Below, piece after piece: positions 197 through 13,844 of a DNA stretch of 64,000 bases (position 1 is its first letter; each line of letters opens with the position of its first letter). Source of the stretch: a virus; the IMG/VR virus record IMGVR_UViG_3300035661_000042, positions 1 through 64,000 of that record, one strand, 5' to 3'. The notes beneath the pieces were generated by a model that worked only from the letters and a program-made list of their open reading frames with translations, did no database searches and had not been told where the DNA came from. The translations under genes were made by a program, and so were the position numbers.

Positions 197-1069
197 TTAA
201 GAGAACGGATAGTTCTTGTTTTTTGTAGTACGGTCCAATGTGGACTGATAGTGAAGATCAACTTCAAACCCAAATGCGCCAGCAGTATATGTATCATTGA
301 CGTGACTTCCATCACGATAAGCTCTAACCAAAATCAACGAGTCTGGTTCAAGATTTGTTGACGGAATAGCATTACCAAGCGTTGTTTCAATAATTTGGTG
401 TTGTAATACCGTTCCTGACCCGGCCTGTTCAAGAAATGTTGTGGTAGTTGCAGGGAATACACCTTGGCTATATCCTTTTGCTACCGAATACTCAATCCCC
501 CACCGCACTACTCCTGTATTTGTAGTGGTAGGTGCCCAGTGCATGTGTATGTATATTACCGTTCCTGGCACATAATCGTGTGGGATATGAAATGTCACCC
601 AAATTTCATCTGATCCTGTTGCTCCAAACGTATATCCATATATCCCCCCAACAACGTTCGTCCATGATGGGGCATTGGCACCAGTTCCCAGTCGCGATCC
701 AATAAAATTACCACGCAGGTCTTGCCATCCATACTGGCCGTCAAAACTATTGACAACTGTATCAGTTCTTATAACGTTTGTCCCGTCACACACCAAATCC
801 GTACTCATTCCTTGCTGCAAGAAATATCCTGTGCCAGCCGCCGTCTTTACCCGAAGCGTAAATGCACCTGTCGTATTGTTGCTCATTGTGTACGCTTTTG
901 CAGCAGTAGGAACGATGACGTCAATGTTTCCCGTCAGTGCGCCTGTGAGTGCAATTACCCCGTTTTGGGCTTCCACTGCTGTTAGTGTTACGTTAGTAGC
1001 GCCTGCAACAGATTTTGACAAATATTGATCTACTGCAAGAGCTGACGATTTAATTGTTGGCTGCGACAT
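197..1069 (-). CDS. putative virion structural/fibre-associated protein (290 aa)
   Basis: T/G/A-rich N-terminal fibre module (LTGALTGNIDVIVPT..YTMSNNTTGAFTLRVKT..GTG) and a beta-rich C-terminal domain; structural gene context. Confidence 0.6.
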   Translation of the reverse strand: MSQPTIKSSALAVDQYLSKSVAGATNVTLTAVEAQNGVIALTGALTGNIDVIVPTAAKAYTMSNNTTGAFTLRVKTAAGTGYFLQQGMSTDLVCDGTNVIRTDTVVNSFDGQYGWQDLRGNFIGSRLGTGANAPSWTNVVGGIYGYTFGATGSDEIWVTFHIPHDYVPGTVIYIHMHWAPTTTNTGVVRWGIEYSVAKGYSQGVFPATTTTFLEQAGSGTVLQHQIIETTLGNAIPSTNLEPDSLILVRAYRDGSHVNDTYTAGAFGFEVDLHYQSTLDRTTKNKNYPFS

Positions 1070-1082
1070 TTATGCAATCACC

Positions 1083-2924
1083 TTACAACGGCAGCAGCAG
1101 GAATTCGAGAACAGAACCCACTGGTGGTGCTGTAAAAAATACGACGTTTGTGGAAGTAATTGATGATACTCCTGTTTCTTTGTATGCCAGGTCTGTTGTA
1201 ATGCTTGTGTTTACGGGAGCAGAACTGGTTGGCATTGATTGGAAATAAGTACCAACACCGTATGAGATCGTTACATTCGATCCGTTGCCTGACGTATTGG
1301 ATTGAATTATCAAATCCATAGTATCATAACGTTGATCGAGGTTGACTGTTGCTGGAATTGTAAGCGTCGTAAATGCGGACGTCAAGCTTGCAACCATTTG
1401 AAGATACGTATACGAAGCTCCAACAACAATTGTTACACTTGAATATAGCGTTCCATCAACAGTAATATTGAACGCATATACTCCGTTAGGGATTCCAATC
1501 ACGCTCTTTGGACTAATTGGCGTATCTGTGAATGTGATTCTACTCATACCACGTTCGCAACAATATTGCTTAACACCGTCCATTGATATTGATAGACGAT
1601 TCTCGCTAACTTGGTATCCCATAAAAGCTGAAAGATTGAATGACGTAGTTGTTCCGTCACCAATCACAATCTGTCGTTCAATACGTTGCGTTAGACCAAT
1701 CAACGTTTGATCTAATGATCGAATTGCATTAGATGTAGGAATAACCGGGTATCCACCCGTCGCCACTTCTGAAATTATCAGAACACTTCGGCTGTACAGA
1801 GGAGATGCCAGATCGTACGTGATAGCGCCAGTTGTGTGCCCGTGGTTAAACGGTGCCATTGTGCCGGTTACTGTAACGTCAGGTAATCCGAGAGTACGCT
1901 GTAATGTCAGAACACCTGTTGAACTGGTGAACACACCACCATAAACCACACCGTCGCTGACCGCGGAAGGTGGTAGTCCTGCGATTGCGGTTAAAATTGC
2001 GGTATCTACATACAACTTGGTTGTAGCATCATTGTTGAGAGACGGAGCACCCAATTGCTGGATGCGAACAAGACCGAGGTTAATTGAACTCGAACCGCCG
2101 CCAACAAACGTGATAGAACCAGTCGACGAGAACGCCAAGTTCCCTGTCATTGTATCGCCAGTTGTCACAATAAAATTGGGCAGTTGGCTGTTAATGGTAG
2201 CAATATCACCCGTTAACACTGTGTCCGCATTACCACGTGTTATTGCCTCTGCATTAACCAATCCAGTTACAACCGCGTCTCTTGCATCAACGTATGATTT
2301 GTTTGCAACGTGCAATGCAGATGAAGGAGTATCAGTAACAGATACTGCAACACCGGCATTATATACGACCGTACCACCTGTAAATGTTGTTGCTCCCGCA
2401 GTAAACGCAACACCACCAGTAAGAGTTCCGCCCGCCAGCTGCAAGTACCGACCATCGGCCGTATTGCGATTGAGAGCATCTGTTCCGGATACTGCATTTC
2501 CAAGACTTGTGATCAGCGCGCCGCCCAAGTCAACATTACCAAAAATGTTAGCAGCAAGAACTGGGGTCCAAGCTGTTCCGCTGTATACAAATAGACCAGC
2601 TACCGTAGGGTCTGACGGAAACGAAGGATCGGTATAGTTTGCATTCTTGTACCAAATTTGGCCTTGAACGGGTGTAAGAGGCCGACTTTTATACGCAAAA
2701 TGCTCCATCAAGTAGACCAGATCATTCTGAACCAATTCACCGTAGTCGGTGATGCCTCGACCTGCAAGAACCAGCGAAGAGTTAGACGATAGTGCTGTTA
2801 ATCCTGATACAGGATTAACGTATAGTCCAGCAGACCACGGACGAGTTGTACCATCAATCTGATCAGATTGAACGAGAAACGACCCATTCGCTGGATCGGA
2901 GCGCTTTATGACGTAGTTGGACAT
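1083..2924 (-). CDS. putative virion structural (baseplate/fibre) protein, 613 aa; N-terminus paralogous to 10747..12081
   Basis: L.L.GRG...YGE.V..DLV.L.E.FA....P....GQ.W motif shared with the 444-aa ORF; fibre repeats DALNRNTAD, HVANKSYVD, DATTKLYVD; own late promoter. Confidence 0.7.
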   Translation of the reverse strand: MSNYVIKRSDPANGSFLVQSDQIDGTTRPWSAGLYVNPVSGLTALSSNSSLVLAGRGITDYGELVQNDLVYLMEHFAYKSRPLTPVQGQIWYKNANYTDPSFPSDPTVAGLFVYSGTAWTPVLAANIFGNVDLGGALITSLGNAVSGTDALNRNTADGRYLQLAGGTLTGGVAFTAGATTFTGGTVVYNAGVAVSVTDTPSSALHVANKSYVDARDAVVTGLVNAEAITRGNADTVLTGDIATINSQLPNFIVTTGDTMTGNLAFSSTGSITFVGGGSSSINLGLVRIQQLGAPSLNNDATTKLYVDTAILTAIAGLPPSAVSDGVVYGGVFTSSTGVLTLQRTLGLPDVTVTGTMAPFNHGHTTGAITYDLASPLYSRSVLIISEVATGGYPVIPTSNAIRSLDQTLIGLTQRIERQIVIGDGTTTSFNLSAFMGYQVSENRLSISMDGVKQYCCERGMSRITFTDTPISPKSVIGIPNGVYAFNITVDGTLYSSVTIVVGASYTYLQMVASLTSAFTTLTIPATVNLDQRYDTMDLIIQSNTSGNGSNVTISYGVGTYFQSMPTSSAPVNTSITTDLAYKETGVSSITSTNVVFFTAPPVGSVLEFLLLPL

Positions 2925-2998: not shown

Positions 2999-4279
2999 TT
3001 AAACCATACGAATGTCGCTATTGAACAACAACTTGAAAGCAGCAAGTTGAATTGCGCGGTAGTGAGTCTTCTCAACTGCACAGTTGGTATAGTGCACTGC
3101 TTGACCCAAATCCAGCGGGCACGAACTCTTGCACAGCCGACGAACTTCACACGTTCCACAGTGATAATCACGATTTAGGTTGACTTGTTGAATCTTGATA
3201 CCTTTGAGGTACATCAAGTTCCCACCGTTGTAAGATTCGTCAACGTTTTGGCACGTCCGCACGTTACCAAGCAAATCCATTGTCAGCAGCCTGCTGTCGT
3301 CAACTCCGCAGTTGGATTTAAGCAGTGGAACCTTTTGTTCTTGGAGAGTGCGAGCAAACGGCAACACACCCAACCCCGTTTGGAATAGATTGTTCGCTAA
3401 CATATCGCCCTGTGTTGTTTCACCAAGGCGTCGGAACTGCTCAATATGCGAGTCCAAATAGCGAGTCAGGATCTCCTTATACAACGGGATATGTTCACCG
3501 CTAATAACATGGTGAGTTGAGTTTTCTGCCATCTCTTTGTCATATACTCTGCCCAGCTCATAACTCAACTGCTTATGTTTGAGGTTGTTCTGTTGGAAGA
3601 AGTCAAGAAAGAAGTCGTTAATTTTGAACAAATCGTAGTTTGTGCGACTAATCACAGGGTTGAAGCTATACTGGATCTTTTGACCACCCTCTTCTTCGAT
3701 CCGCTGAAAGATCTCAACCTTCTTGTGGATGAACTCTTTACCACGAAGCGTTTCATGACCGGGGCCGTCGTGTGAGATGCCCATTGCAACATTGCCCTTC
3801 AATTGTTTGAAGAAGTCGATGTGCTTGTGCATCAACGGCGTTCCGTTTGTCGGGACATACCACGTGATTCCTTCGCGGTCAAACTCTTCCATCAAAGGAA
3901 CCATATCCTTCCAGTACAGCAAGGTTTCACCGCCCCACAGCTCAAACCGGAGTAGTTCTGATAGGTCGAGGTGACGCTTGATCTTCTGGATTAGCATTGG
4001 GGTTAGCCCGTTCTCTGGCCTTTCGTTTGGATTACCGATGTCTTTTTGCATGCAGTATCCACAGCTATAATTACATCCTTGGCCAAGAGAAATTTTGATT
4101 GTTTCGGGGTTCTTTACAACATGTGTTGCGCCAAAGCGATCTTTCAGCTGATTCCACTCTGCTGGTTCTACAAATGGTTTGCTCAACGGGGCACCTGCAT
4201 CTGTGTACAACCCATTATTAGCGTTGTCATACAAGAAGTGTTCGCCAGTGCGAAGGATTTCAAATTTAGTTACACTCAT
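2999..4279 (-). CDS. radical SAM/SPASM-domain protein (rSAM-D, 426 aa)
   Basis: CNYSCGYC (CxxxCxxC), LWGGET, TNG; C-terminal C..GNVRTC..CGTCEVRRLCKSSCP..C auxiliary Fe-S motif. Confidence 0.92.
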   Translation of the reverse strand: MSVTKFEILRTGEHFLYDNANNGLYTDAGAPLSKPFVEPAEWNQLKDRFGATHVVKNPETIKISLGQGCNYSCGYCMQKDIGNPNERPENGLTPMLIQKIKRHLDLSELLRFELWGGETLLYWKDMVPLMEEFDREGITWYVPTNGTPLMHKHIDFFKQLKGNVAMGISHDGPGHETLRGKEFIHKKVEIFQRIEEEGGQKIQYSFNPVISRTNYDLFKINDFFLDFFQQNNLKHKQLSYELGRVYDKEMAENSTHHVISGEHIPLYKEILTRYLDSHIEQFRRLGETTQGDMLANNLFQTGLGVLPFARTLQEQKVPLLKSNCGVDDSRLLTMDLLGNVRTCQNVDESYNGGNLMYLKGIKIQQVNLNRDYHCGTCEVRRLCKSSCPLDLGQAVHYTNCAVEKTHYRAIQLAAFKLLFNSDIRMV

Positions 4280-5460
4280 GATGTGCTTTCAACGATGGGA
4301 ATATGTAGTGGAGGGCGCAGCGGAACAGGAGAAAACATAAAGAGTGGTCTCACAGCACCAGACGTACAGTTAGGATCAAACAATCCATATTGCGTTTCAA
4401 TCCATCCCTGTTCTTGCAGTTTACGGTACAACCGCACCCACGGTTTGAGTATGATGCGAGGCACAAAGTTGTAGTGTTGGTCAACGACTAAGGTTGACGA
4501 CAAGTATGAAAAGTACTCATAGTGCGGATTGTTTGTCTTATTGGTAATTTCCCGTGCATATCGCGCATACAAATCCAACTTTGCTTGAAGGCTCTTTGCA
4601 ATGAAATGATCTATGTCGATAATCCCGTCACGCATGATATCGTAGTAAGGAACACTCGATGCAGCGGTGGCGTCACTCAACGTGAGAAGAAGCGAAGTGT
4701 ATTGTAGATACACAACTTCGCTGATTACTTGCATTGGTTCCGATCCCTGTGCGTAGTAATTTAGCTCTTGGTAATCAACAGAATCAAGATTCAGACGTAA
4801 GTTTTGACCTTGGGTAATGTCATCATGCACCCCAACATATATTCCAAGCGAGTGTGCAAACTCGACAAATCGCACGACGGGCTCTGATTGTTCGCCATTA
4901 GCAGTGCGAACAATCACTTTCAGCTTTGAGATAGGAGAGCGTGCGTGAAGAAGTTTCAACTTTTCTATTACGTCATCAACCATTCGACCTTGTTTCTTTC
5001 CAAGAAACACATCACTAAATGAGATCTCGTACACGGTTTTGAATTGGACGTCTTCCATCATGATTTTGTACTGCTGTACGAACGCATTATCTGTCATCTG
5101 CGTTGAAGCCATGCGATGAGCGTTTCGTTTGTAAAAATCAAACAAATGTGGATAGTTGTTCTTGATGTAGTACAGGTCATCAATCGTGCTAATTGTGTCA
5201 AAGCAGTCGAAAAATTCAAGAATGCGCTTCTCTGTCGCCTCGCCAATCACATGAGGAACATATGCGTCAAACTTGTCATCTGGCATCCAAGCATCACGCA
5301 AGTAACACATCTTGCAGCCGGCCTTACACATATACTTGACGAAAATTGAGAACACAAGTTCACGAGAGATGTTTTCCAATGCATCCCACTTCAAGAAGTA
5401 TTCCTTGAAGTTAGTGCTATTTTCAACGCCCGGTGTTACCTGCTTTTCTGCTTCAATCAT
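4276..5460 (-). CDS. divergent radical SAM-like protein (rSAM-C, 394 aa) without SPASM domain
   Basis: CKAGCKMC motif; likely start ATG 5460 overlapping the upstream TGA (ATGA); no GGEP and no C-terminal Cys cluster. Confidence 0.7.
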   Translation of the reverse strand: MIEAEKQVTPGVENSTNFKEYFLKWDALENISRELVFSIFVKYMCKAGCKMCYLRDAWMPDDKFDAYVPHVIGEATEKRILEFFDCFDTISTIDDLYYIKNNYPHLFDFYKRNAHRMASTQMTDNAFVQQYKIMMEDVQFKTVYEISFSDVFLGKKQGRMVDDVIEKLKLLHARSPISKLKVIVRTANGEQSEPVVRFVEFAHSLGIYVGVHDDITQGQNLRLNLDSVDYQELNYYAQGSEPMQVISEVVYLQYTSLLLTLSDATAASSVPYYDIMRDGIIDIDHFIAKSLQAKLDLYARYAREITNKTNNPHYEYFSYLSSTLVVDQHYNFVPRIILKPWVRLYRKLQEQGWIETQYGLFDPNCTSGAVRPLFMFSPVPLRPPLHIPIVESTS

Positions 5461-6536
5461 ATTCCTACCCAGTGGAAAAATGTTGGTTGTTGTTTGAGTT
5501 TTTGTGCGTGTTGTATTACTACCATCAACATCTGATAGAATTGAGCACATTTATCAGTTTCGGGGTCAGTTTCAAAGATTCCGTGCAGGTATTTCAATCC
5601 ACACAGATCCCTTGACGGACACACTTGACACTTTGGACGGAGCATCTGGTCTTCTTGCTCTTTTGTTTTGATTCGTTCAACAGATACAGGATCTCTCCAT
5701 CTGCCAACAGTAGTTTCTGTTCGTTTGTATTCAAGGAAATCAAACTCCGGATACAGGTATCCATCAGGTGACAGCACCAGTTGTTTGTGGTCGTTAAAGT
5801 AATGCTTGTCAAATCCGTTTCCGTGCCCGTCAATTACAACATCGATTCCCATCAGATATAGCATCTGAACAAACTTCAAAAAAGCATCAAAGAATTGTGG
5901 TAGATTGAGTTCATCGATAATAACACGAAACTTGTCCTTGCCACGAATGTGGCGCAGAGGAATCAATACAATTCGCCGCACATCGTTCTTGTGACAAATA
6001 TCAGTGATCGACTTTATTGCTGCGAGGCTGAATACTTTTGGATCCGTTACAGGCATTACGTACTGAAATTGCCTTCCACGTACTCCCGTTTCAGCCATCA
6101 TTTTCAGCGTTGGATTGATCTCAAACAGCGAGCGATTTAGGTCCTGATACATGAAGTCATAGCTGATGCTAATTTCCAACCGAGGACCCCACTTTTCAAA
6201 GAACCAACGGTGCTGCAAAATCTGACTTCCATTGGTTTGGATGTAGAATGGATAATCACCAGGCACAGATTGAACAATTGCATCCATCATTTTGTCCATA
6301 ATCTTCACATACGAGAATGGTTCACCACCGTGGAATGTGAACATTCCAGGAGGAGACGCAGCAATTCCTGACTTCTTGAAGAAGTCAATGATATACGGAA
6401 GATCGTCGAGCGTCATATGTTGCCCACCGATAGAATCTTTGATGTAATCTCGATCGCAATATGTGCAATTGAAGTTGCACACGTTTCCAAGATATATCGT
6501 AATCGTTCGGCACCCCGCAAGAGAGGTAGGAGACAT
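5457..6536 (-). CDS. radical SAM protein with partial SPASM domain (rSAM-B, 359 aa)
   Basis: CNFNCTYC, FHGGEP, QTNG; C-terminal CQVCPSRDLC..C; the GxxxPC position reads DGYLYPE. Confidence 0.9.
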   Translation of the reverse strand: MSPTSLAGCRTITIYLGNVCNFNCTYCDRDYIKDSIGGQHMTLDDLPYIIDFFKKSGIAASPPGMFTFHGGEPFSYVKIMDKMMDAIVQSVPGDYPFYIQTNGSQILQHRWFFEKWGPRLEISISYDFMYQDLNRSLFEINPTLKMMAETGVRGRQFQYVMPVTDPKVFSLAAIKSITDICHKNDVRRIVLIPLRHIRGKDKFRVIIDELNLPQFFDAFLKFVQMLYLMGIDVVIDGHGNGFDKHYFNDHKQLVLSPDGYLYPEFDFLEYKRTETTVGRWRDPVSVERIKTKEQEDQMLRPKCQVCPSRDLCGLKYLHGIFETDPETDKCAQFYQMLMVVIQHAQKLKQQPTFFHWVGI

Positions 6537-8254
6537 TACAGCTTGACTATTTTGTGCGGTTTCGATAAGCCATCACCCTTCTGGTTCAACAGAACCATAT
6601 GAACCAACGCAAGATAAAATGTGCGCTTGTTCACATCATTGATATCACCTTCTGAAACACTTGCTGTTACAGGCTTGCCCGCGGCAGTAAGGAGATATTC
6701 ATACAGGGCTTTGATATCAATAGGCCATGCAGTGATGGTAGGAACGTAATCATCAGCATCATCCAGTGCAGTGACCTTGTTTTCCATTAGACCAATAAAT
6801 TGACCAATGATTTGTTCATATGGTGGTAACTTATCAGCAAATTGATCGACTTCATCAATAGCCAAATGTACACGATTGATCTTGTTATACATCAAGTGTG
6901 TCAATGCCTTGGCAAACGTATACTGCTCACCCTTTGTTGCGACGGATTCAACCAGTTGTTGGAATTTTTGGTTGAACGTCTTACGCACAATGTCGTTTTG
7001 TAGTTCAAGGAATAGTCGAACAATGCTTTGACACATGGCATCAGGACGGAACAATCCACGACCCGTATCAGCTTGCCCTGCTGGACACTGATAACAGAAT
7101 CCCTTCAAGTCACAGGCTTGGCACTGTGGTTCCTTGATGAACATTTCGTTGTAAATGTCTTGGAAGCTTGCGTAGCGATCAACATATACCGCATCATGCA
7201 AGAGGTTTCCAAGGATTGTATGTGGGACAGACTCTTTGAGATTGGTGAAGAAGTGGCATCCAGAGAAATCGCCCGACGCATCGACAGCAATCATGTCAGA
7301 TCCAACCATGCAGTTGTTTCCACCCTTCGCGCCAACTCCCTCGGAAAACTGAACCTCAAAGTTTGGAAGTGTGTTGATTACTGTTAGCACACTTTGGTGC
7401 AAAGCTTCCCATCGTTCAGCATCCCACGTCAAGTGTCCGTCAACGGAACTGTTTGTAAGCGGGTGAATCACGATTGCACGGAGTCCCTTATCGTATAGCC
7501 GAGTGCAGAACTCTACAAGACGTGGAGCGTTCTCAATTGCGATTGTGCAACGCACGCTGACCATGTGATTATTTTTGTGGTATTCAGGAATCAACCCGAT
7601 CATGTCAATGATGCGGTCGATGCGGTCTTGCCCAATTTCACGGTGGTCGATTTCAGCAATGTCGGTGTCCAAACTAACGCTCATACACACGTGCTTGCTT
7701 TGAAAATATTCGTCAATGAACTGCGGCGTTAGCAGGATACCGTTGGTAATGATGCCAACAGCGGTTGTCGCAGAGTTCTTCTTTAATTCTGCGTCGTACG
7801 TACGGAGGAAATCAAGAATCAACTGCTTGTGAATCAACGGTTCACCACCAAAAAACTGAAACAGCTTACCAGTCTTTGGATTACAAGCGACGAGGAAATC
7901 ATACAGTTGCTTCAAGCTTTCAGGGGTAAATCGGCCGTAATCCTTATCGTGCTGTTCATAGCAATACGAACAGCTTAGGTTGCAAGCGTTGGTGACAATC
8001 AAGTTCATGTGTTGGAGGTCTTCAAACAACTCGTACACTGCTCCCGTCTTCATCACTCGTTCGGCTTGGTCAGGACGAATGGATTTATATGCAACTTCCT
8101 TTACGTCACCCCGCGGTGTAATAATCGTACGAACCGATGTGTCAAGTGTTCCATCAGCATTGACTTTGACAGAGGCTTGGTGTGAGTCAATTCGTTGCTG
8201 TTGAGCCTCCGTTAGCGCGCGCTTTGGATAGAATTTAACTTCTGTTGTTTTCAT
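6536..8254 (-). CDS. radical SAM/SPASM peptide-maturase-like protein (rSAM-A, 572 aa)
   Basis: TNACNLSCSYCYE, FFGGEPLI, ITNG; CMVG..GDFSGC..CQACDLKGFCYQCP..C; likely start MKTTEVK at 8254; TAATG junction with the next gene. Confidence 0.92.
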   Translation of the reverse strand: MKTTEVKFYPKRALTEAQQQRIDSHQASVKVNADGTLDTSVRTIITPRGDVKEVAYKSIRPDQAERVMKTGAVYELFEDLQHMNLIVTNACNLSCSYCYEQHDKDYGRFTPESLKQLYDFLVACNPKTGKLFQFFGGEPLIHKQLILDFLRTYDAELKKNSATTAVGIITNGILLTPQFIDEYFQSKHVCMSVSLDTDIAEIDHREIGQDRIDRIIDMIGLIPEYHKNNHMVSVRCTIAIENAPRLVEFCTRLYDKGLRAIVIHPLTNSSVDGHLTWDAERWEALHQSVLTVINTLPNFEVQFSEGVGAKGGNNCMVGSDMIAVDASGDFSGCHFFTNLKESVPHTILGNLLHDAVYVDRYASFQDIYNEMFIKEPQCQACDLKGFCYQCPAGQADTGRGLFRPDAMCQSIVRLFLELQNDIVRKTFNQKFQQLVESVATKGEQYTFAKALTHLMYNKINRVHLAIDEVDQFADKLPPYEQIIGQFIGLMENKVTALDDADDYVPTITAWPIDIKALYEYLLTAAGKPVTASVSEGDINDVNKRTFYLALVHMVLLNQKGDGLSKPHKIVKL

Positions 8255-9149
8255 TGTTGAGTACCACGTACTTGAATGTTGGGTGTTCGGTTGGGCGAGC
8301 TTGATCAAAAAGCAACCCACAGTGAAATTGTATTTCAAAGTATCCTATACCATGCGCAGGAGTAGCAACAACAAATGACCCATTTACTGTGGTGTATTGC
8401 AGATTAGTATCAACCGTCCACTGTGCATTCGCCAGTATATTAGCGGGATCTTCTCGTTTGAGAATTGAAATAGGGCTGGTGAGAAACGATAAGGTAAATG
8501 TTGGTTGTGTTGTGATAATTACGTTACCAATCACCCGGGCTGGATCTTCGATAGTTGGAATGAGAAAGTGTTGGCACAGGGGACCATCTTTTTCAGACAA
8601 CAAGAACCACATCGCTTGTGCAGGCACATCATAGAAATCAAATCCATCTGTTGCATGGACAAGATCAGAATTTAGAATCAAGCTGTATACGGGGAACCCT
8701 GCGAACCGAACTGCTCCAAAAAATGCCGTAATCATTGTACCAAACTTTGACTCAATTGGGAGATTAGTTTCAATATCGATTACAACTCCGTCTGCCGTTC
8801 GAGCGAAGTATTGGGCTTTTTCAATTGCTTCTGTGTCTTTGGTTATGTGGTGCGAAGCAAGTACACCAAAAATGACGTACTCATACTTATCAAGCGCCGT
8901 AGTTATGAGATCAAGATCAATTGGGCGAAAATATGATGGATGCTGTACGCGGAGAGACGGATCTGTTTGGTAGTGCGCAATAGCAAAAGCACTGGTTCCG
9001 TTTCGTGTGTTGTTGCGTACTAAACGCAACCCTGGTTCTACCCTGTGATAGAATCCAATTTGAGGTAACTCGTCGGGGTTTACAACAGTGGTGAAATCCC
9101 CAAAAAGAGACGGAGTTCTATCCCCTTCTCTGACCAGAATGTACTTCAT
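8235..9149 (-). CDS. hypothetical protein in the rSAM operon (304 aa)
   Basis: starts 3 nt after the peptide gene stop and overlaps the rSAM-A start; no recognisable motif. Confidence 0.75.
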   Translation of the reverse strand: MKYILVREGDRTPSLFGDFTTVVNPDELPQIGFYHRVEPGLRLVRNNTRNGTSAFAIAHYQTDPSLRVQHPSYFRPIDLDLITTALDKYEYVIFGVLASHHITKDTEAIEKAQYFARTADGVVIDIETNLPIESKFGTMITAFFGAVRFAGFPVYSLILNSDLVHATDGFDFYDVPAQAMWFLLSEKDGPLCQHFLIPTIEDPARVIGNVIITTQPTFTLSFLTSPISILKREDPANILANAQWTVDTNLQYTTVNGSFVVATPAHGIGYFEIQFHCGLLFDQARPTEHPTFKYVVLNNENNRS

Positions 9150-9152
9150 AGG

Positions 9153-9356
9153 TTACAGAATACCACGGGAGCAATTGCAGTTACAATTGCAATTGCAGGC
9201 GGTACTATAATCGTCATAGAAGATATGTGTGTGAGACACTAATTCATTCAAAATGCTAAGCATATTTTGAAATGTAGCAGCATTCACTTCATTACCTGCG
9301 GTAACAGTAGCAACTGTACCAGCAGCAGTTGTCTTTGTACTTGTGGATTCAGACAT
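9153..9356 (-). CDS. putative rSAM-modified precursor peptide with C-terminal (CN)4C core (67 aa)
   Basis: ends ELVSHTHIFYDDYSTACNCNCNCNCSRGIL; AAGGA SD upstream; fills the gap between neighbours exactly; upstream of four rSAM genes. Confidence 0.8.
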   Translation of the reverse strand: MSESTSTKTTAAGTVATVTAGNEVNAATFQNMLSILNELVSHTHIFYDDYSTACNCNCNCNCSRGIL

Positions 9357-9378
9357 TGTATTTCCTTTTTACTGTATG

Positions 9379-10737
9379 TTACAACACGGGAAGGGGTTGG
9401 ACAACAGGTAATTGAGGAATTACACTATCCCAGTCGAGCGTAGTATAGTCAAAGCCTGCTTGGTTGACACCGGCACCAACTACATATCCATTGACAATAA
9501 TTGGTGAACCGTTTGTGCGTGGAAGGTACAGTCGTGTGTTTGGATCAATAACTGATCCTGTACTTACTGTGTTAGTTTTCCATCCGTCTACGTGAGCCCA
9601 ATCAACAGCCTGATTGCCACCACGCATTGATTGATTATCTAACAGACCACCAATTTCCCCCGATGCTGCTTCTGCTTTCCACATTACTGGATTAGCTGAC
9701 CACCACCACTGTGATTGATTGGCATCACGTGTCCACATTGCGTGTTCTTCGGACCAGCTCAATGAATTGTCTTGGAATGTTTTCATACGGCGGCCGCCCA
9801 GGAACGGGCGGTCCATTGATATGACAGGTTCGGGATGACCCATTCCCATGATCATATCTCCCACATCAACGTCTTCAATCAATTTCCACGTTCCGTCTGC
9901 CATTAACACAAAACTACCGGCAGGAAAACAAGTGAGAACTGGTGGAACATATGTATATTCTGTACATTGAAGTGTGATTGAGGCAGTATCAAGTACTGCC
10001 AACGTCGAAGCGCTGCGAATTTGGACAGTTAATACTGATGTGATTGTGGTGTCTACTGCACCACTTGCAAGTGTCCACGAACGTGTAGTTCCAAGATTTA
10101 ACCACGTTCCAAGCGGAGATCCTGTCACAGATGATCCGCTTGATACTGTAACATACACATCGTAAGACGCTGCTGTCGTTAAGTCCACTGGCGCCATCGT
10201 ATTCCACTCAGCTCCTGTTGCTCCACCAGTATATGATAGTTGTCCATCATTAGCAAGGACGAGAGTAACAGAAGTTGGAGCAGAATCAGACCAACTATAC
10301 GTTTGAGCAGTTATGCTCGCCGTTTGACCCGTCACCCCAACACCGTCAGTAATCGTGTGTGAGTGAACCCGCATATTGTTGATCATGGCAATCAACACGT
10401 TAATGTCAGCAGCAGTAATTTGTGCATCAGTTGCAATTCCACCAGGCGTAGTAACAGCCCCGTATGCAGGCGTTGTTGCAAATGTTGTTTGTGATAGTAC
10501 TGTTCCACCTACCCCGTATGTTGTAACATTACCAAACGTATCAATTCCTTGAATATCTGTTGCACTGTGCGTATGACTGCGCCAGAGATTGTATACAGAG
10601 CTGTTGAGGCTGGCGAGATCAGACGCATATACAGACTTGCCCGCTGCCATCGCCACAATCAAGGCATTAACCACCGCTTGCATTGTTGCAATTGTGTATC
10701 CCAGAGGTGTAGAAGTTGTCGTTGAAACTTGTGGCAT
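9379..10737 (-). CDS. putative virion protein with C-terminal Hint (Hedgehog/intein-like) domain (452 aa)
   Basis: TCFPAGSFVLMADGTWKLIEDVDVGD (block A), SEEH (block B), LYLPRTNGSPIIVNGYVVG (blocks F/G without His-Asn); two HxH modules in the N-terminal part. Confidence 0.8.
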   Translation of the reverse strand: MPQVSTTTSTPLGYTIATMQAVVNALIVAMAAGKSVYASDLASLNSSVYNLWRSHTHSATDIQGIDTFGNVTTYGVGGTVLSQTTFATTPAYGAVTTPGGIATDAQITAADINVLIAMINNMRVHSHTITDGVGVTGQTASITAQTYSWSDSAPTSVTLVLANDGQLSYTGGATGAEWNTMAPVDLTTAASYDVYVTVSSGSSVTGSPLGTWLNLGTTRSWTLASGAVDTTITSVLTVQIRSASTLAVLDTASITLQCTEYTYVPPVLTCFPAGSFVLMADGTWKLIEDVDVGDMIMGMGHPEPVISMDRPFLGGRRMKTFQDNSLSWSEEHAMWTRDANQSQWWWSANPVMWKAEAASGEIGGLLDNQSMRGGNQAVDWAHVDGWKTNTVSTGSVIDPNTRLYLPRTNGSPIIVNGYVVGAGVNQAGFDYTTLDWDSVIPQLPVVQPLPVL

Positions 10738-10746
10738 GATCCGTCC

Positions 10747-12081
10747 TTATGCGTACACAGCTGGATATACTTGCTTCCAGTTGCCGCCAGGAGGGCCGCC
10801 TGATCCACCGGCATTTGCGATATAGATTTTTCCCGAATCAATTGCAATGTCACCAGCTTTGTATACGCCAGACGTCCAGATGATAGGAACACCTGCGCCA
10901 ACACCTGCGCCAGCAATTGCTGCTGTCATTTGCGAAACGTTTACTGCATCGTTGGCATTTGTTCCAGTAGCAAGATTAACGATCTTGCTACTGTTCATGC
11001 TCAACTGTCCGCCGTTAATGTTGGCAGCACCACTAACGGTTAGTGTGCTACCAATCGATGCGGTTGTTCCAACAACCAAAGCACCACTTGCTGTTAGCGT
11101 GCCTCCTGATGTAATTGCACCCGCCGTTGAGATGGAGTTCAACGACGCCAACCCTGACGAAGATAGTGTTGTGAACGTGGAGTTCACGCTGTGTATGACA
11201 GTTCCAGCGCTGAACGTCACAGAACCTATTAGTGTACCACCAGATAATGGGAGGAACACGCCGGCGCCGCCACCTGATACCAAACTGGTTACTTGTGCCA
11301 GCGTTGTTGCATCTTGTGCACCAACGGCATTTGCCATTCCAGTAATTCTAAACGAACCCATTTCCAGATTACCGCTGGCCGTTGAAAGAGCCGCTCCTGT
11401 TGGACCAAGAATTTCCTGCCACGCAGCACCAGTGTATACAAGCAGATTACCTGTCGCTGTATTGTACCACAACATACCAGTAAGTGGTAGACTTGGAGTT
11501 GTGCCAGAGACGATAGTTCCTGACGGCGTATCCCACGTCGCTGTTGCTGCATTATAGACGTGAACGTTAATCTGGGGTGTAACTGCTGGGGAGATTGGTA
11601 CTGCACCCCCGATGATATAGGAACGTGGCAACCATGCAGCTGGTTCATACTTGCCAAGCGAATAGTAACCAAATAGAGTAACACCGTTGCTGTAATACTC
11701 ACCTTCAATTGGAGATACTGATGCAGTTCCTGATACAATGCCTGTGCCGTTGAGAAGTTTCCATTTGTTTGGAGCAACTTCCTTGATATCGTAGTAGTAC
11801 CACCCTTGCAGTACGTTACCGATCAAGGTATTACGATAGTACAGCGTTTGCTCTACCCACGTTTGACCGGTGATTGCGTAGCTTGGTGATGAAGCACTTG
11901 CAAAGTTTTCTGTCAAACGGACCAAGTCTTCGTCGACAGCCTCGCCCCATTCAAGTGCTCCGCGACCATACAACCGAAGAGATGTGTTGGCAGACGAACC
12001 ACCTGGGCCGTTGAAGCCGCCGGCTGGAATGCTAAAACTACCTTTTAGCGGGTCGGAAAAGTCGATTGCATATGCTGACAT
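10747..12081 (-). CDS. putative virion structural/fibre protein (444 aa), paralog of 1083..2924
   Basis: shared N-terminal domain; GMLWYNT..LLVY.GAAW; DATTLAQV and DAVNVSQM fibre repeats. Confidence 0.7.
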   Translation of the reverse strand: MSAYAIDFSDPLKGSFSIPAGGFNGPGGSSANTSLRLYGRGALEWGEAVDEDLVRLTENFASASSPSYAITGQTWVEQTLYYRNTLIGNVLQGWYYYDIKEVAPNKWKLLNGTGIVSGTASVSPIEGEYYSNGVTLFGYYSLGKYEPAAWLPRSYIIGGAVPISPAVTPQINVHVYNAATATWDTPSGTIVSGTTPSLPLTGMLWYNTATGNLLVYTGAAWQEILGPTGAALSTASGNLEMGSFRITGMANAVGAQDATTLAQVTSLVSGGGAGVFLPLSGGTLIGSVTFSAGTVIHSVNSTFTTLSSSGLASLNSISTAGAITSGGTLTASGALVVGTTASIGSTLTVSGAANINGGQLSMNSSKIVNLATGTNANDAVNVSQMTAAIAGAGVGAGVPIIWTSGVYKAGDIAIDSGKIYIANAGGSGGPPGGNWKQVYPAVYA

Positions 12082-12144: not shown

Positions 12145-12897
12145 TTAGATCCCCATTTCACCAACCAACATTTTGATCTTTGCAACTTCGTCGGGGTGTT
12201 GCGCGAACTTGTCTGGCCAATAGCTCGGTCTGATTAGATTTTCGAGGATGATTTTTTGCTCTGCGTTTGTGCGATGAACAAATGCATCTTTGAACGTTTT
12301 GCTGAACAACAGCAGCCACGGAGATAACTTCCGTACGTGTAAAAGGTGAATAATCGCCTGTATTGGCATATGATTGAACACTTCGGGAATTGCAATTTCG
12401 TGCTTGTCGCTGTATGCCATCACTGTTTCAATCGACAAGGTTGCGCTCTCCATTCCCGATGTCTTACGGTCGAGGAATTCAAGGTAGATTGAGTACACGT
12501 CGTCATTCATCCACATTGTAGGTGAATAATCCTTTGTTACCATCAGCCAAATGAACTTCTCCACTCTTGGCAACTCTACGCGTTTGGAAAAGTTGACAAA
12601 GTTGATGAACGTACGGAAGTATTTTGACGATAAGAAAGCAGGGCCCGGTGGTGGCATGCGCTTCATTGCACGCATCCACAGTTGATAGTAGTGCCACGCA
12701 ACTTGGCCTGTGGGTGAGCGAAACTCCTCCTCACGTTTCATTTGCTTACACTGATGCGCGAGGTAACGCCCCTCCAACACAAACACTTTATGGCATGACT
12801 TACAAGTGAAGCGTGATTGAATAGATGAGCGTCGGTCCTGCATATGTTCTATGGTTGTTCTCAACACAGGTGGCTCTCTTAATTTGAAATAATCCAC
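12145..12897 (-). CDS. hypothetical protein with N-terminal zinc finger
   Basis: FTCKSCHKVF..EGRYLAHQC zinc-finger-like motif; start may be at 12843. Confidence 0.65.
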   Translation of the reverse strand: MDYFKLREPPVLRTTIEHMQDRRSSIQSRFTCKSCHKVFVLEGRYLAHQCKQMKREEEFRSPTGQVAWHYYQLWMRAMKRMPPPGPAFLSSKYFRTFINFVNFSKRVELPRVEKFIWLMVTKDYSPTMWMNDDVYSIYLEFLDRKTSGMESATLSIETVMAYSDKHEIAIPEVFNHMPIQAIIHLLHVRKLSPWLLLFSKTFKDAFVHRTNAEQKIILENLIRPSYWPDKFAQHPDEVAKIKMLVGEMGI

Positions 12898-13844
12898 GCA
12901 TTATCGTGTGAAACCTTTGTATCGTAAACAGAGAACTCTGCGTGAACATTGCCAACCGTCCACTTGGTCTTCAAGTTATCAACTGTGAATTCAAGCATTC
13001 CTGCGAAAATTTCATATGTTCCAGTCTTCTCACGCAGGGTAACCATGAGAACGACAGATCCATCTGCGTTCTTCTTGAACAGGTTTTGTGATGCGTGGAG
13101 ATTGATACCATTCATCTTGTATTCTGCAATCATTGCCCGCAGTGCTGGTAGATCTGGCTCTTTGAGAGTGACAGGGATGTGAGCTTCAAAGTAGCAATTT
13201 GTTGGCATTGGTTGGTTATCAACAGGAGCTGCCGGATGCCAGGGGACGGTTTCAATTTTGATACGAACAACGCTCAAATCACACTGTGCAAGTGATGCAG
13301 CGAGATTTTGAGCGTAGATATACGCTGTGCGGTTGGTTCCAAAGTGCTTTGACGACGTCATTGCGTCTGTCATTGCTGTTGTGCCGTTGGGGGTTTGGAG
13401 ATCGAGAATGATTGGTTTGCAATGTAGTTGCTTGCATATATCACGAAACATCTCAATATATGTGTGAGGGAAATCTTGCGTAACAGGGACGGGCAGCGCC
13501 ACTGTGATGTGAATCTCATACGGAAGTGGGTACTTGATCTCGTGTTCTTTGCTTTGCAACAGCGCCCACTTCTCTGCCTTTCGACTGAACATCTCATCGA
13601 CTTCATCGTCAGTAAAATCAAGGTCATACGCAACGGACAGAGCGCACAACACAGTATCAACAGCCTCTTCGAGAATCTGTTCGCGCTCGACAAATCGGTG
13701 AGTTGTCGCGTATGCGTTGTCAAAAGGCAGGGCAGCCTTCGCAAGCTCGCCAAATTCTTCACCAACTTTTAGTGTCTTTTGTGAGAGAGTTTTGCGGTCT
13801 TGCTTCGACAAGTACCGGACGTATTTGAGAAATTCAGGAGTCAT
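12879..13844 (-). CDS. MazG-like nucleotide pyrophosphohydrolase fused to an uncharacterised C-terminal domain
   Basis: LKVGEEFGELAKA...EEAVD all-alpha NTP-PPase motif; C-terminal YEIHITV..RIKIETVPW..YFEAHI domain. Confidence 0.7.
   Translation of the reverse strand: MTPEFLKYVRYLSKQDRKTLSQKTLKVGEEFGELAKAALPFDNAYATTHRFVEREQILEEAVDTVLCALSVAYDLDFTDDEVDEMFSRKAEKWALLQSKEHEIKYPLPYEIHITVALPVPVTQDFPHTYIEMFRDICKQLHCKPIILDLQTPNGTTAMTDAMTSSKHFGTNRTAYIYAQNLAASLAQCDLSVVRIKIETVPWHPAAPVDNQPMPTNCYFEAHIPVTLKEPDLPALRAMIAEYKMNGINLHASQNLFKKNADGSVVLMVTLREKTGTYEIFAGMLEFTVDNLKTKWTVGNVHAEFSVYDTKVSHDNAWIISN

Follow-up and report, generated by a model that had tools for sequence, protein, structure and literature searches.

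A helix-HxHxxxD module common to a small cysteine-rich peptide and its neighbouring protein suggests a docking role for the leader in a radical SAM cassette of large phages

The PapB ranthipeptide maturases make Cys thioether cross-links, and in the QhpC/QhpD system a radical S-adenosylmethionine (SAM) enzyme introduces cross-links into a small subunit that then remains part of a protein complex. Nif11-like and nitrile-hydratase-like leaders derive from protein domains, yet are removed; they are not known to duplicate an adjacently encoded protein or to assemble with one. Identical chains of phage fibres and spikes form octahedral Fe or Zn sites from three HxH motifs on their threefold axis, as described in PMC6116203. 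The locus analyzed here lies in a stretch of 64,000 nucleotides (the window), positions 1 to 64,000 of IMG/VR virus record IMGVR_UViG_3300035661_000042, where a peptide of 67 residues is encoded at 9153..9356 on the minus strand in a cassette with four genes of radical-SAM type. The peptide consists of one helix-HxHxxxD module followed by an alternating-Cys tail, and two further copies of the module are found in a 452-aa partner protein encoded upstream at 9379..10737 on the same strand, which continues into a beta-rich middle and a C-terminal Hint domain. The front half of the peptide probably docks it to this partner instead of being merely a throw-away leader.

The peptide module comprises residues 17-48 (9213..9308), partner module 1 residues 30-61 (10555..10650), and partner module 2 residues 100-131 (10345..10440), all on the minus strand. 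The invariant residues are H42, H44, and D48 in the peptide, H55, H57, and D61 in module 1, and H125, H127, and D131 in module 2, which gives the best hhalign match to the peptide. The three segments that the initial annotation had aligned by eye, at approximately residues 20-48 of the peptide and 32-61 and 104-131 of the 452-aa open reading frame (ORF), are present as it described them. Among the six-frame ORFs of at least 60 aa in the window (378 ORFs, 50,434 residues) the HxHxxxD pattern occurs at three sites, all of which are these modules, against a chance expectation of ∼0.3 per 24,729 residues of long ORFs. Pairwise BLASTP of the peptide with the 452-aa protein is marginal (E 0.06). Both proteins match phrog_31780, a phage family of unknown function with a 125-position profile, the 452-aa protein with E 7e-11 over residues 3-132 and the peptide with E 0.0045 over residues 9-54.

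Three alignments were used for the family comparisons: A1, the peptide family, with 46 rows drawn from 65 cluster representatives at E ≤ 0.01; A2, the family of the 452-aa protein, with 12 rows; and A3, the two-module family, with 15 rows and no peptide rows. Invariant positions in A1 are L36, L39, H42, H44, D48, D49, Y50, T52, C54-C58, and G65. Both repeats are conserved in A2 across the 12 relatives of the 452-aa protein, and in the 15 rows of A3 the invariant positions are exactly H55, H57, D61, G69, H125, H127, and D131. The likeness first seen by eye is borne out by profile-profile alignment, which is significant for A1 against A3 (probability 94.3%, E 9.6e-8, 41 columns, peptide residues 8-48 on partner residues 91-131); for A1 against A2 the probability is 71% (E 3.7e-5). 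Searched against its own record of 81,132 bp, the A3 profile matches only the N-terminus of the 452-aa protein (E 8.9e-43) and the peptide (E 7.7e-7). Within the peptide family the mean share of the top residue is 0.95 for residues 42-53, 0.88 for residues 54-67, and 0.42 for residues 1-20, so that the module is far better conserved than the first 20 residues of the peptide. Because the PHROG match, the hhalign comparisons, the motif count, the search of the own record, and the cross-family profile matches described below agree, the resemblance reflects homology and not chance, and on this sequence evidence the peptide begins with a genuine third copy of the module that the partner has twice.

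Co-occurrence of the two genes in other phages is strict. A pattern scan of IMG/VR yielded at least 598 stretches, leading to at least 27 confirmed loci, and the counts over 27 loci reported here are among the matches listed; a local search with profile hidden Markov models (HMMs) covered 3,707 six-frame ORFs of the stored loci. Upstream of the peptide, the A3 HMM detects a two-module ORF at each of the 27 loci; the same is true of three of three JGI loci, two of which run into a contig end, and of phages RP12 and RP31. The families also recognize each other: the A3 HMM matches the peptide ORF in 23 of the 27 loci, with E from 1.6e-6 to 9.2e-3, and the A1 HMM matches the two-module ORF in 19. 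The usual form of the partner, found in most of these loci, is a stand-alone protein of ∼125-135 aa; locus L001 has a 295-aa form. In L017 the two-module gene (5176-5492) is divided between two frames that overlap, 5176-5382 and 5331-5492; decay of the copy, an error in sequencing, or a frameshift may account for this, and in the near-identical L018 the gene is a single ORF of 116 aa. According to tblastn the 600-aa enzyme of the cassette is present in all 27 loci and the 359-aa enzyme in 24, the other three ending at or just past the first enzyme. The 424-aa and 426-aa proteins are found in 21 loci, the other six ending earlier, and the 304-aa protein in 14, before the peptide in some loci and after it in others.

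The cassette is complete in RP12 and RP31, which are cultured phiKZ-related Ralstonia jumbo phages. ORF074 of RP12 is the two-module protein and ORF076-079 are the enzymes, and ORF075 corresponds in position to the 304-aa protein, to which it has a weak tblastn match (E 0.006, residues 74-142). Between ORF074 and ORF075 lies an unannotated gene for a 65-aa peptide (L028 6787-6984, approximately 82888-83085 of NC_041911.1); its counterpart in RP31 (L029, approximately 4787-4984, AP017925.1), also of 65 aa and unannotated, lies between ORF070 and ORF071. When the phage collection is searched by tblastn with the peptide, only weak matches to RP12 and RP31 are obtained (E 0.1, three records), and the 600-aa enzyme retrieves the same three records. 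The two genes before the two-module gene of RP12, ORF072 and ORF073, are annotated 'virion structural protein'. Liquid chromatography-tandem mass spectrometry of RP31 virions is reported in PMC5468394; with no annotated peptide gene in either RP12 or RP31, the peptide was beyond the reach of that published search.

The module is also found fused to other cargo. A profile search with A1 of 1.84 billion representatives gave 74 matches at E ≤ 0.001, which were classified by a simple motif count. One HxH is present in 48 sequences with a CxCxC tail and in 11 without (several of these being fragments), two in 12 sequences with the tail and in one without (P0145), and three in one sequence with the tail (P0095) and one without (P0140). 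P0142 combines the module with a 150-aa extension and has no Cys tail, and in P0085 the Cys tract is internal, with a Pro-rich linker and then a 180-aa domain after it. A likeness by eye between P0142 and the middle domain of the 452-aa protein was unsupported (BLASTP E 0.42). In L027 the partner (7119-8282, 387 aa) carries a Pfam Gly_rich_2 domain (E 6.3e-13) between modules 1 and 2; P0140 (390 aa) is like this partner, plus a fused third module. On the opposite strand of L027, between the peptide and the homologue of the 304-aa protein, is a 358-aa ORF (8600-9676) that by eye looks like a GIY-YIG homing-endonuclease-type protein. P0109 (122 aa) is a two-module precursor with a long CNCNCNCNCNC tail, encoded on a 246-kb contig of a Salmonella enterica assembly; it has no match in the phage collection, and the contig may be an unrecognised jumbo phage within that assembly. 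A search of viral contigs with P0095 for the loci of two- and three-module precursors found none, and A4 led to three loci in metagenome contigs, all of the ordinary 2 + 1 arrangement, and to four in viral contigs, all of which were already in the set. That two-module and one-module genes come strictly paired, and that single chains having three modules exist, points to three modules per unit.

A complex was modeled from A3 (residues 1-140 of the window protein), the A1 peptide, and a riding Fe(II). The complex score is 0.68 (0.67, 0.69, and 0.68 in the individual runs) vs. 0.02 for the best of three controls, and the runs share at least 70% of contacts. In the calibration of the tool this level is reached by 58 of 80 solved complexes and by 2 of 110 mismatched pairs. 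Predicted contacts connect peptide residues 2-48 with partner residues 3-36, 44-59, and 108-129, and in the model His57 and His127 of the partner both contact His44 of the peptide. The Cys tail (peptide residues 49-67) is outside the confidently placed contacts, which signifies uncertainty rather than freedom. In an AlphaFold2 model of the partner alone, residues 1-137 have a predicted local distance difference test (pLDDT) value of only 33-55 and the beta and Hint domains are confident; the low value for the N-terminus fits a region that would need a partner to be ordered. Fold comparison of the 452-aa protein gave significant matches on the Hint domain only, the module part being of low pLDDT. 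The modeling supports binding of the peptide to the partner. Docking to the 452-aa protein and convergence of the HxH motifs are thereby predicted, and the homotrimer geometry implied by the initial annotation is not supported.

The reading that we prefer, with a probability of roughly 0.55, is that the 'leader' is a docking domain fixing the modified Cys tail on the partner in a 1:1 pseudo-threefold unit. The three modules, two from the partner and one from the peptide, would pack into one pseudo-threefold bundle that constitutes a 1:1 heterodimer, and the three HxH pairs would meet there, plausibly around Fe or Zn as in the His6 sites of fibres and spikes. The module would be retained in this unit, and docking would leave the alternating Cys residues at the C-terminus accessible to the cassette's four radical-SAM enzymes, for which the tail would be first a tethered substrate and later a tethered, possibly cross-linked, product. 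In the lineage of the window the partner would in addition contribute its beta-domain and a self-cleaving Hint domain.

The presumed substrate of the radical-SAM enzymes, peptide residues 49-67 (9156..9212, minus strand), consists of DY-S-T-A, then CxCxCxCxC, then S-R-G-I-L. It had first been described as a 'CN tract', a name that does not suit the family, since Asn is not conserved: relatives have C-E/D/Q/A-C, and 12 of the loci listed show E, D, Q, or A where the tail has Asn here. The features that are kept are the alternating Cys and the terminal C-S/T/G-R-G-x-x. Among the tail variants, P0115 is without the CxCxC run, the tail of P0119 is interrupted by a Pro-rich insert, and P0093 and P0124 have irregular Cys spacing.

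The enzymes are encoded downstream of the peptide, all on the minus strand. The first, a radical SAM/SPASM-type enzyme of 600 aa (6536..8338), has the PapB ranthipeptide maturases as its nearest named family (NCBIfam NF047865, E 4.5e-36, 124.7 bits vs. a cut-off of 340) and also matches the QhpD family TIGR03906 (E 6.8e-21, 74 bits vs. 453) and rSAM_nif11 (E 5.5e-19, 68 bits vs. 519), as well as the CXXX-repeat, SCIFF, and CcpM families, again far below curated cut-offs. With scores so far under the cut-offs, it is assigned to the peptide-modifying radical SAM/SPASM enzymes as a member of a family that has no name yet. A second radical SAM enzyme (359 aa, 5457..6536) and a fourth (426 aa, 2999..4279) have family profile matches; between them is a 424-aa protein of radical-SAM type (4276..5550) with a CxxxCxxC motif, which matches phrog_36229 and is without a Pfam or NCBIfam match. 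No PqqD-type RiPP recognition element (RRE; RiPP, peptide synthesized on the ribosome and modified after translation) was matched by Pfam in the four enzymes at E ≤ 0.1 for three and ≤ 0.01 for the fourth, a search in which remote RREs could be missed. Neither a peptidase nor a transporter or exporter was found in the cassette with Pfam, PHROG, and NCBIfam; a host protease may take that part.

The remaining member of the cassette is the 304-aa protein (8235..9149, minus strand), which belongs to no known Pfam, PHROG, or NCBIfam family and has a confident fold model (pLDDT 83, predicted template modeling (TM) score 0.83). Only N24 and Y155 are invariant in the 15 rows of its family, and this speaks against a classical hydrolase. 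In the protein atlas it has no usable feature match, and the structure rows there, which derive from a poor model, have TM < 0.45.

In the window these genes form a tight row on the minus strand, in which a fibre-like gene is followed by the genes for the 452-aa, 67-aa, and 304-aa proteins, by the four radical-SAM-type genes, and by two further fibre-like genes. The peptide gene has the sequence AGGA 8-9 nt 5' of its ATG, and its stop codon lies 3 nt ahead of the next start. Directly upstream of the 452-aa gene is that of a 444-aa fibre-like protein (10747..12081, minus strand), with Pfam YadA_stalk and Phage_T7_tail matches and PHROG tail-fibre families. On the downstream side are a 613-aa protein (1083..2924, minus strand), whose N-terminal region is common with fibre-like proteins, and a 290-aa tail-fibre-like protein (197..1069, minus strand; phrog_12796, E 2.8e-18). 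Fibre-like genes flank the cassette on both sides in L001, L013, L019, and L027 also, and because they lie on both sides a fibre-associated role is plausible; the setting suggests a fibre-associated part, possibly located in the virion. The flanking 444-aa and 613-aa proteins have a common N-terminal region, and comparable pairs surround the cassette in L001, L013, and L019; the cassette looks as if it had been inserted into a group of fibre genes that are paralogous to each other. Immediately upstream of the fibre gene, at 12879-13844, lie genes for a MazG-like pyrophosphatase (phrog_1247, E 3.3e-34) and for a conserved protein of 250 aa (phrog_11058), a gene order also found in L001 and L013.

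The source record has a CheckV completeness of 24% and must therefore be a fragment of a very large phage. Its window DNA is present in microbial-mat and sediment metagenome runs, two of which may be where it came from, with no RNA run among them. A scan for promoter-like sites (23 vs. 16.8 expected) and terminator-like sites (3 vs. 8.2 expected) was uninformative, and megablast of the cassette DNA against the phage collection gave no match.

The partner of this lineage has two domains following its modules, both on the minus strand. The beta-rich domain comprises residues 140-262 (9952..10320) and is modeled with pLDDT mostly 72-94. Residues 270-452 (9382..9930), starting at the invariant Cys270, constitute a Hint or bacterial-intein-like (BIL) domain, for which the Pfam match Hom_end_hint (E 9.3e-7) is below the curated cut-off; by Foldseek it comes closest to BIL2 of Tetrahymena BUBL, to Prp8 inteins, and to the C-terminal domain of hedgehog, with E from 5e-6 to 1e-3 and a TM on target of 0.6-0.74. 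Judged from its predicted structure this region is a bona fide Hint/BIL fold. By analogy with its relatives the domain is expected to cut itself off, and this cleavage might leave a reactive thioester on residue 269. The Hint-bearing long partner is found only in the close lineage of the window, in 12 homologues of the 452-aa protein. When the phage collection is searched by tblastn with the 452-aa protein, only relatives of the Hint domain are retrieved, from Achromobacter, Providencia, and Vibrio phages (five records). Searched among longer proteins, of which 8,000 candidates were scored, the two-module profile finds only five Hint-bearing relatives, a result that speaks only weakly for the absence of others. 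The fold and the invariant Cys270 are thus as in the BIL2 and hedgehog Hint domains, whereas the attachment to a phage two-module protein is confined to this close lineage, and a two-module partner that is fused to beta and Hint domains is new in this window.

Several points weigh against the docking reading. The calibration of the complex score holds only roughly for this model, as custom alignments and a riding metal are outside it. Values of pLDDT come from one model family and are modest: the partner chain has 67-69 (≥66), the other chains 60-64. His44 is the sole peptide His among the listed His-His contacts, and the predicted six-His site is putative. Searched against the Protein Data Bank (PDB), the A3 and A1 profiles find nothing better than E 0.46, and the top row for A3 is a His-tag artefact. 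The two-module protein of RP12, ORF074, is annotated 'hypothetical'. Because the precursor itself has two modules in 12 of the 74 relatives, the count of three modules may not hold everywhere. Domain-derived leaders, by analogy with those of the Nif11 and nitrile-hydratase types, can still be cleaved, and enzymes without a recognisable leader-binding domain would fit equally a partner that is a substrate-presenting chaperone. The proposal of an assembly module in place of a cleavable leader stands in so far as the segment is homologous to the partner's modules, always accompanied by a two-module gene, naturally fused to further modules, and predicted to dock; homology alone does not exclude that it is cleaved.

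How the same evidence bears on other explanations depends on what each of them takes the peptide to be. If it were an ordinary RiPP precursor, its leader would be cleaved, the partner would act as a leader-binding chaperone standing in for an RRE or PqqD, or as a decoy, and a small, free, cross-linked Cys peptide would be directed against the host or competitors. A small peptide that adjoins four radical-SAM-type genes, a first enzyme whose nearest families are peptide maturases, and a tail ending in a conserved C-S/T-R-G-x-L are all in keeping with such a precursor; in addition, as no RRE is detected, a separate binder would be needed, and the predicted docking fits one. We nevertheless regard this pathway as somewhat doubtful, though a serious contender, since Pfam, PHROG, and NCBIfam searches reveal no peptidase or exporter in the cassette and the 304-aa protein is without conserved catalytic-type residues. 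Moreover, the binder is homologous to the leader itself and is fused to a beta and a Hint domain here and to a Gly-rich domain elsewhere, the module occurs on proteins without a Cys tail (P0142, P0140, and P0145), the Cys tract of P0085 is internal with a 180-aa domain after it, and the cassette sits among fibre genes. The initial annotation implied instead a homotrimer like the gp37 tip; in such a fibre-type assembly, of which the R-pyocin fibre is another example, three copies of one chain would bind one metal per HxH level, and the peptide would trimerize with itself or cap a fibre trimer. The fibre-like genes that flank the cassette are consistent with this, as is the use of three identical chains by solved HxH sites of fibres and spikes, according to PMC6116203. 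Such an assembly is nevertheless unlikely: at every locus listed the modules are arranged 2 + 1 over two genes, which fits a heterodimer, the pairing of two-module and one-module genes is strict, three-module single chains exist, and the heterodimer model passes its controls. The supposed relation to solved fibre proteins finds no footing either, as the modules are without sequence likeness to them and neither A3 nor A1 has a PDB match. It is hardly credible, finally, that the modules resemble each other through chance or composition, without common origin or function. The shortness of the module (∼32 residues) and the pairwise BLASTP result would leave room for this, but the same three residues are invariant at the same spacing in all three module families, and the PHROG, hhalign, motif-count, co-occurrence, and own-record results all agree.

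If the module docks the peptide as we suggest, the usual leader-core logic of radical-SAM peptides fails at this locus, and the 'leader' would be a lasting assembly domain. The product would then belong, as a modified subunit, to a protein complex of the phage, and this would widen the known uses of the radical-SAM class and provide a new heteromeric route to a His-metal hub. Extending the docking reading, we consider only tentatively that large phages build a part of the particle by a RiPP-like pathway, with a 67-aa chain clamped by a His6-bound metal, in a pseudo-threefold hub of 2 + 1 modules, to a protein of the fibre locus, a Cys tail stapled by the four radical-SAM enzymes into a stiff or metal-binding tip, a Hint cleavage or ligation step in this lineage, and a permanent 'leader'. 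RP12 and RP31, which have the whole cassette, offer a testable system in cultured phages. For annotation, the peptide family (65 cluster representatives) is one that gene callers have missed in at least two deposited genomes. No published description of the cassette was found in the radical-SAM and phage RiPP literature, which is no proof of its being unpublished.

Compared with PapB/freyrasin and SCIFF-type systems, the locus is similar in that a small Cys-rich peptide adjoins radical SAM/SPASM enzymes. It differs in having four paralogous enzymes rather than one; in a tail that is C-x-C-x-C-x-C, with x being N, E, D, Q, or A, and not CX3D or SCIFF-like; in the lack of a detected RRE, peptidase, or exporter, with a maturase below the curated family score; and in a 'leader' that copies the module of a neighbouring protein in the setting of a phage fibre locus. 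A precursor N-terminus homologous to a domain of a larger protein is a likeness to the Nif11 and nitrile-hydratase leaders. The His6 sites with which the locus was compared are those of T4 gp37, gp12, the R1/R2 pyocin fibre, P2 gpV, and the phi92 spike. In common with them are an invariant HxH in each module, the modeled convergence of His residues, and the presence of fibre-like genes in the locus; the known sites, however, are in beta-structure formed by three identical chains, whereas here a helix and HxHxxxD motif would be distributed 2 + 1 over two chains, and the modules have no sequence match to any solved chain. The quinohemoprotein partner genes that belong with QhpC/QhpD are absent here, and the likeness to that system lies in the idea of a modified small chain as a subunit and not a free peptide, which, by analogy, the peptide of this cassette may likewise become by being retained on its partner.

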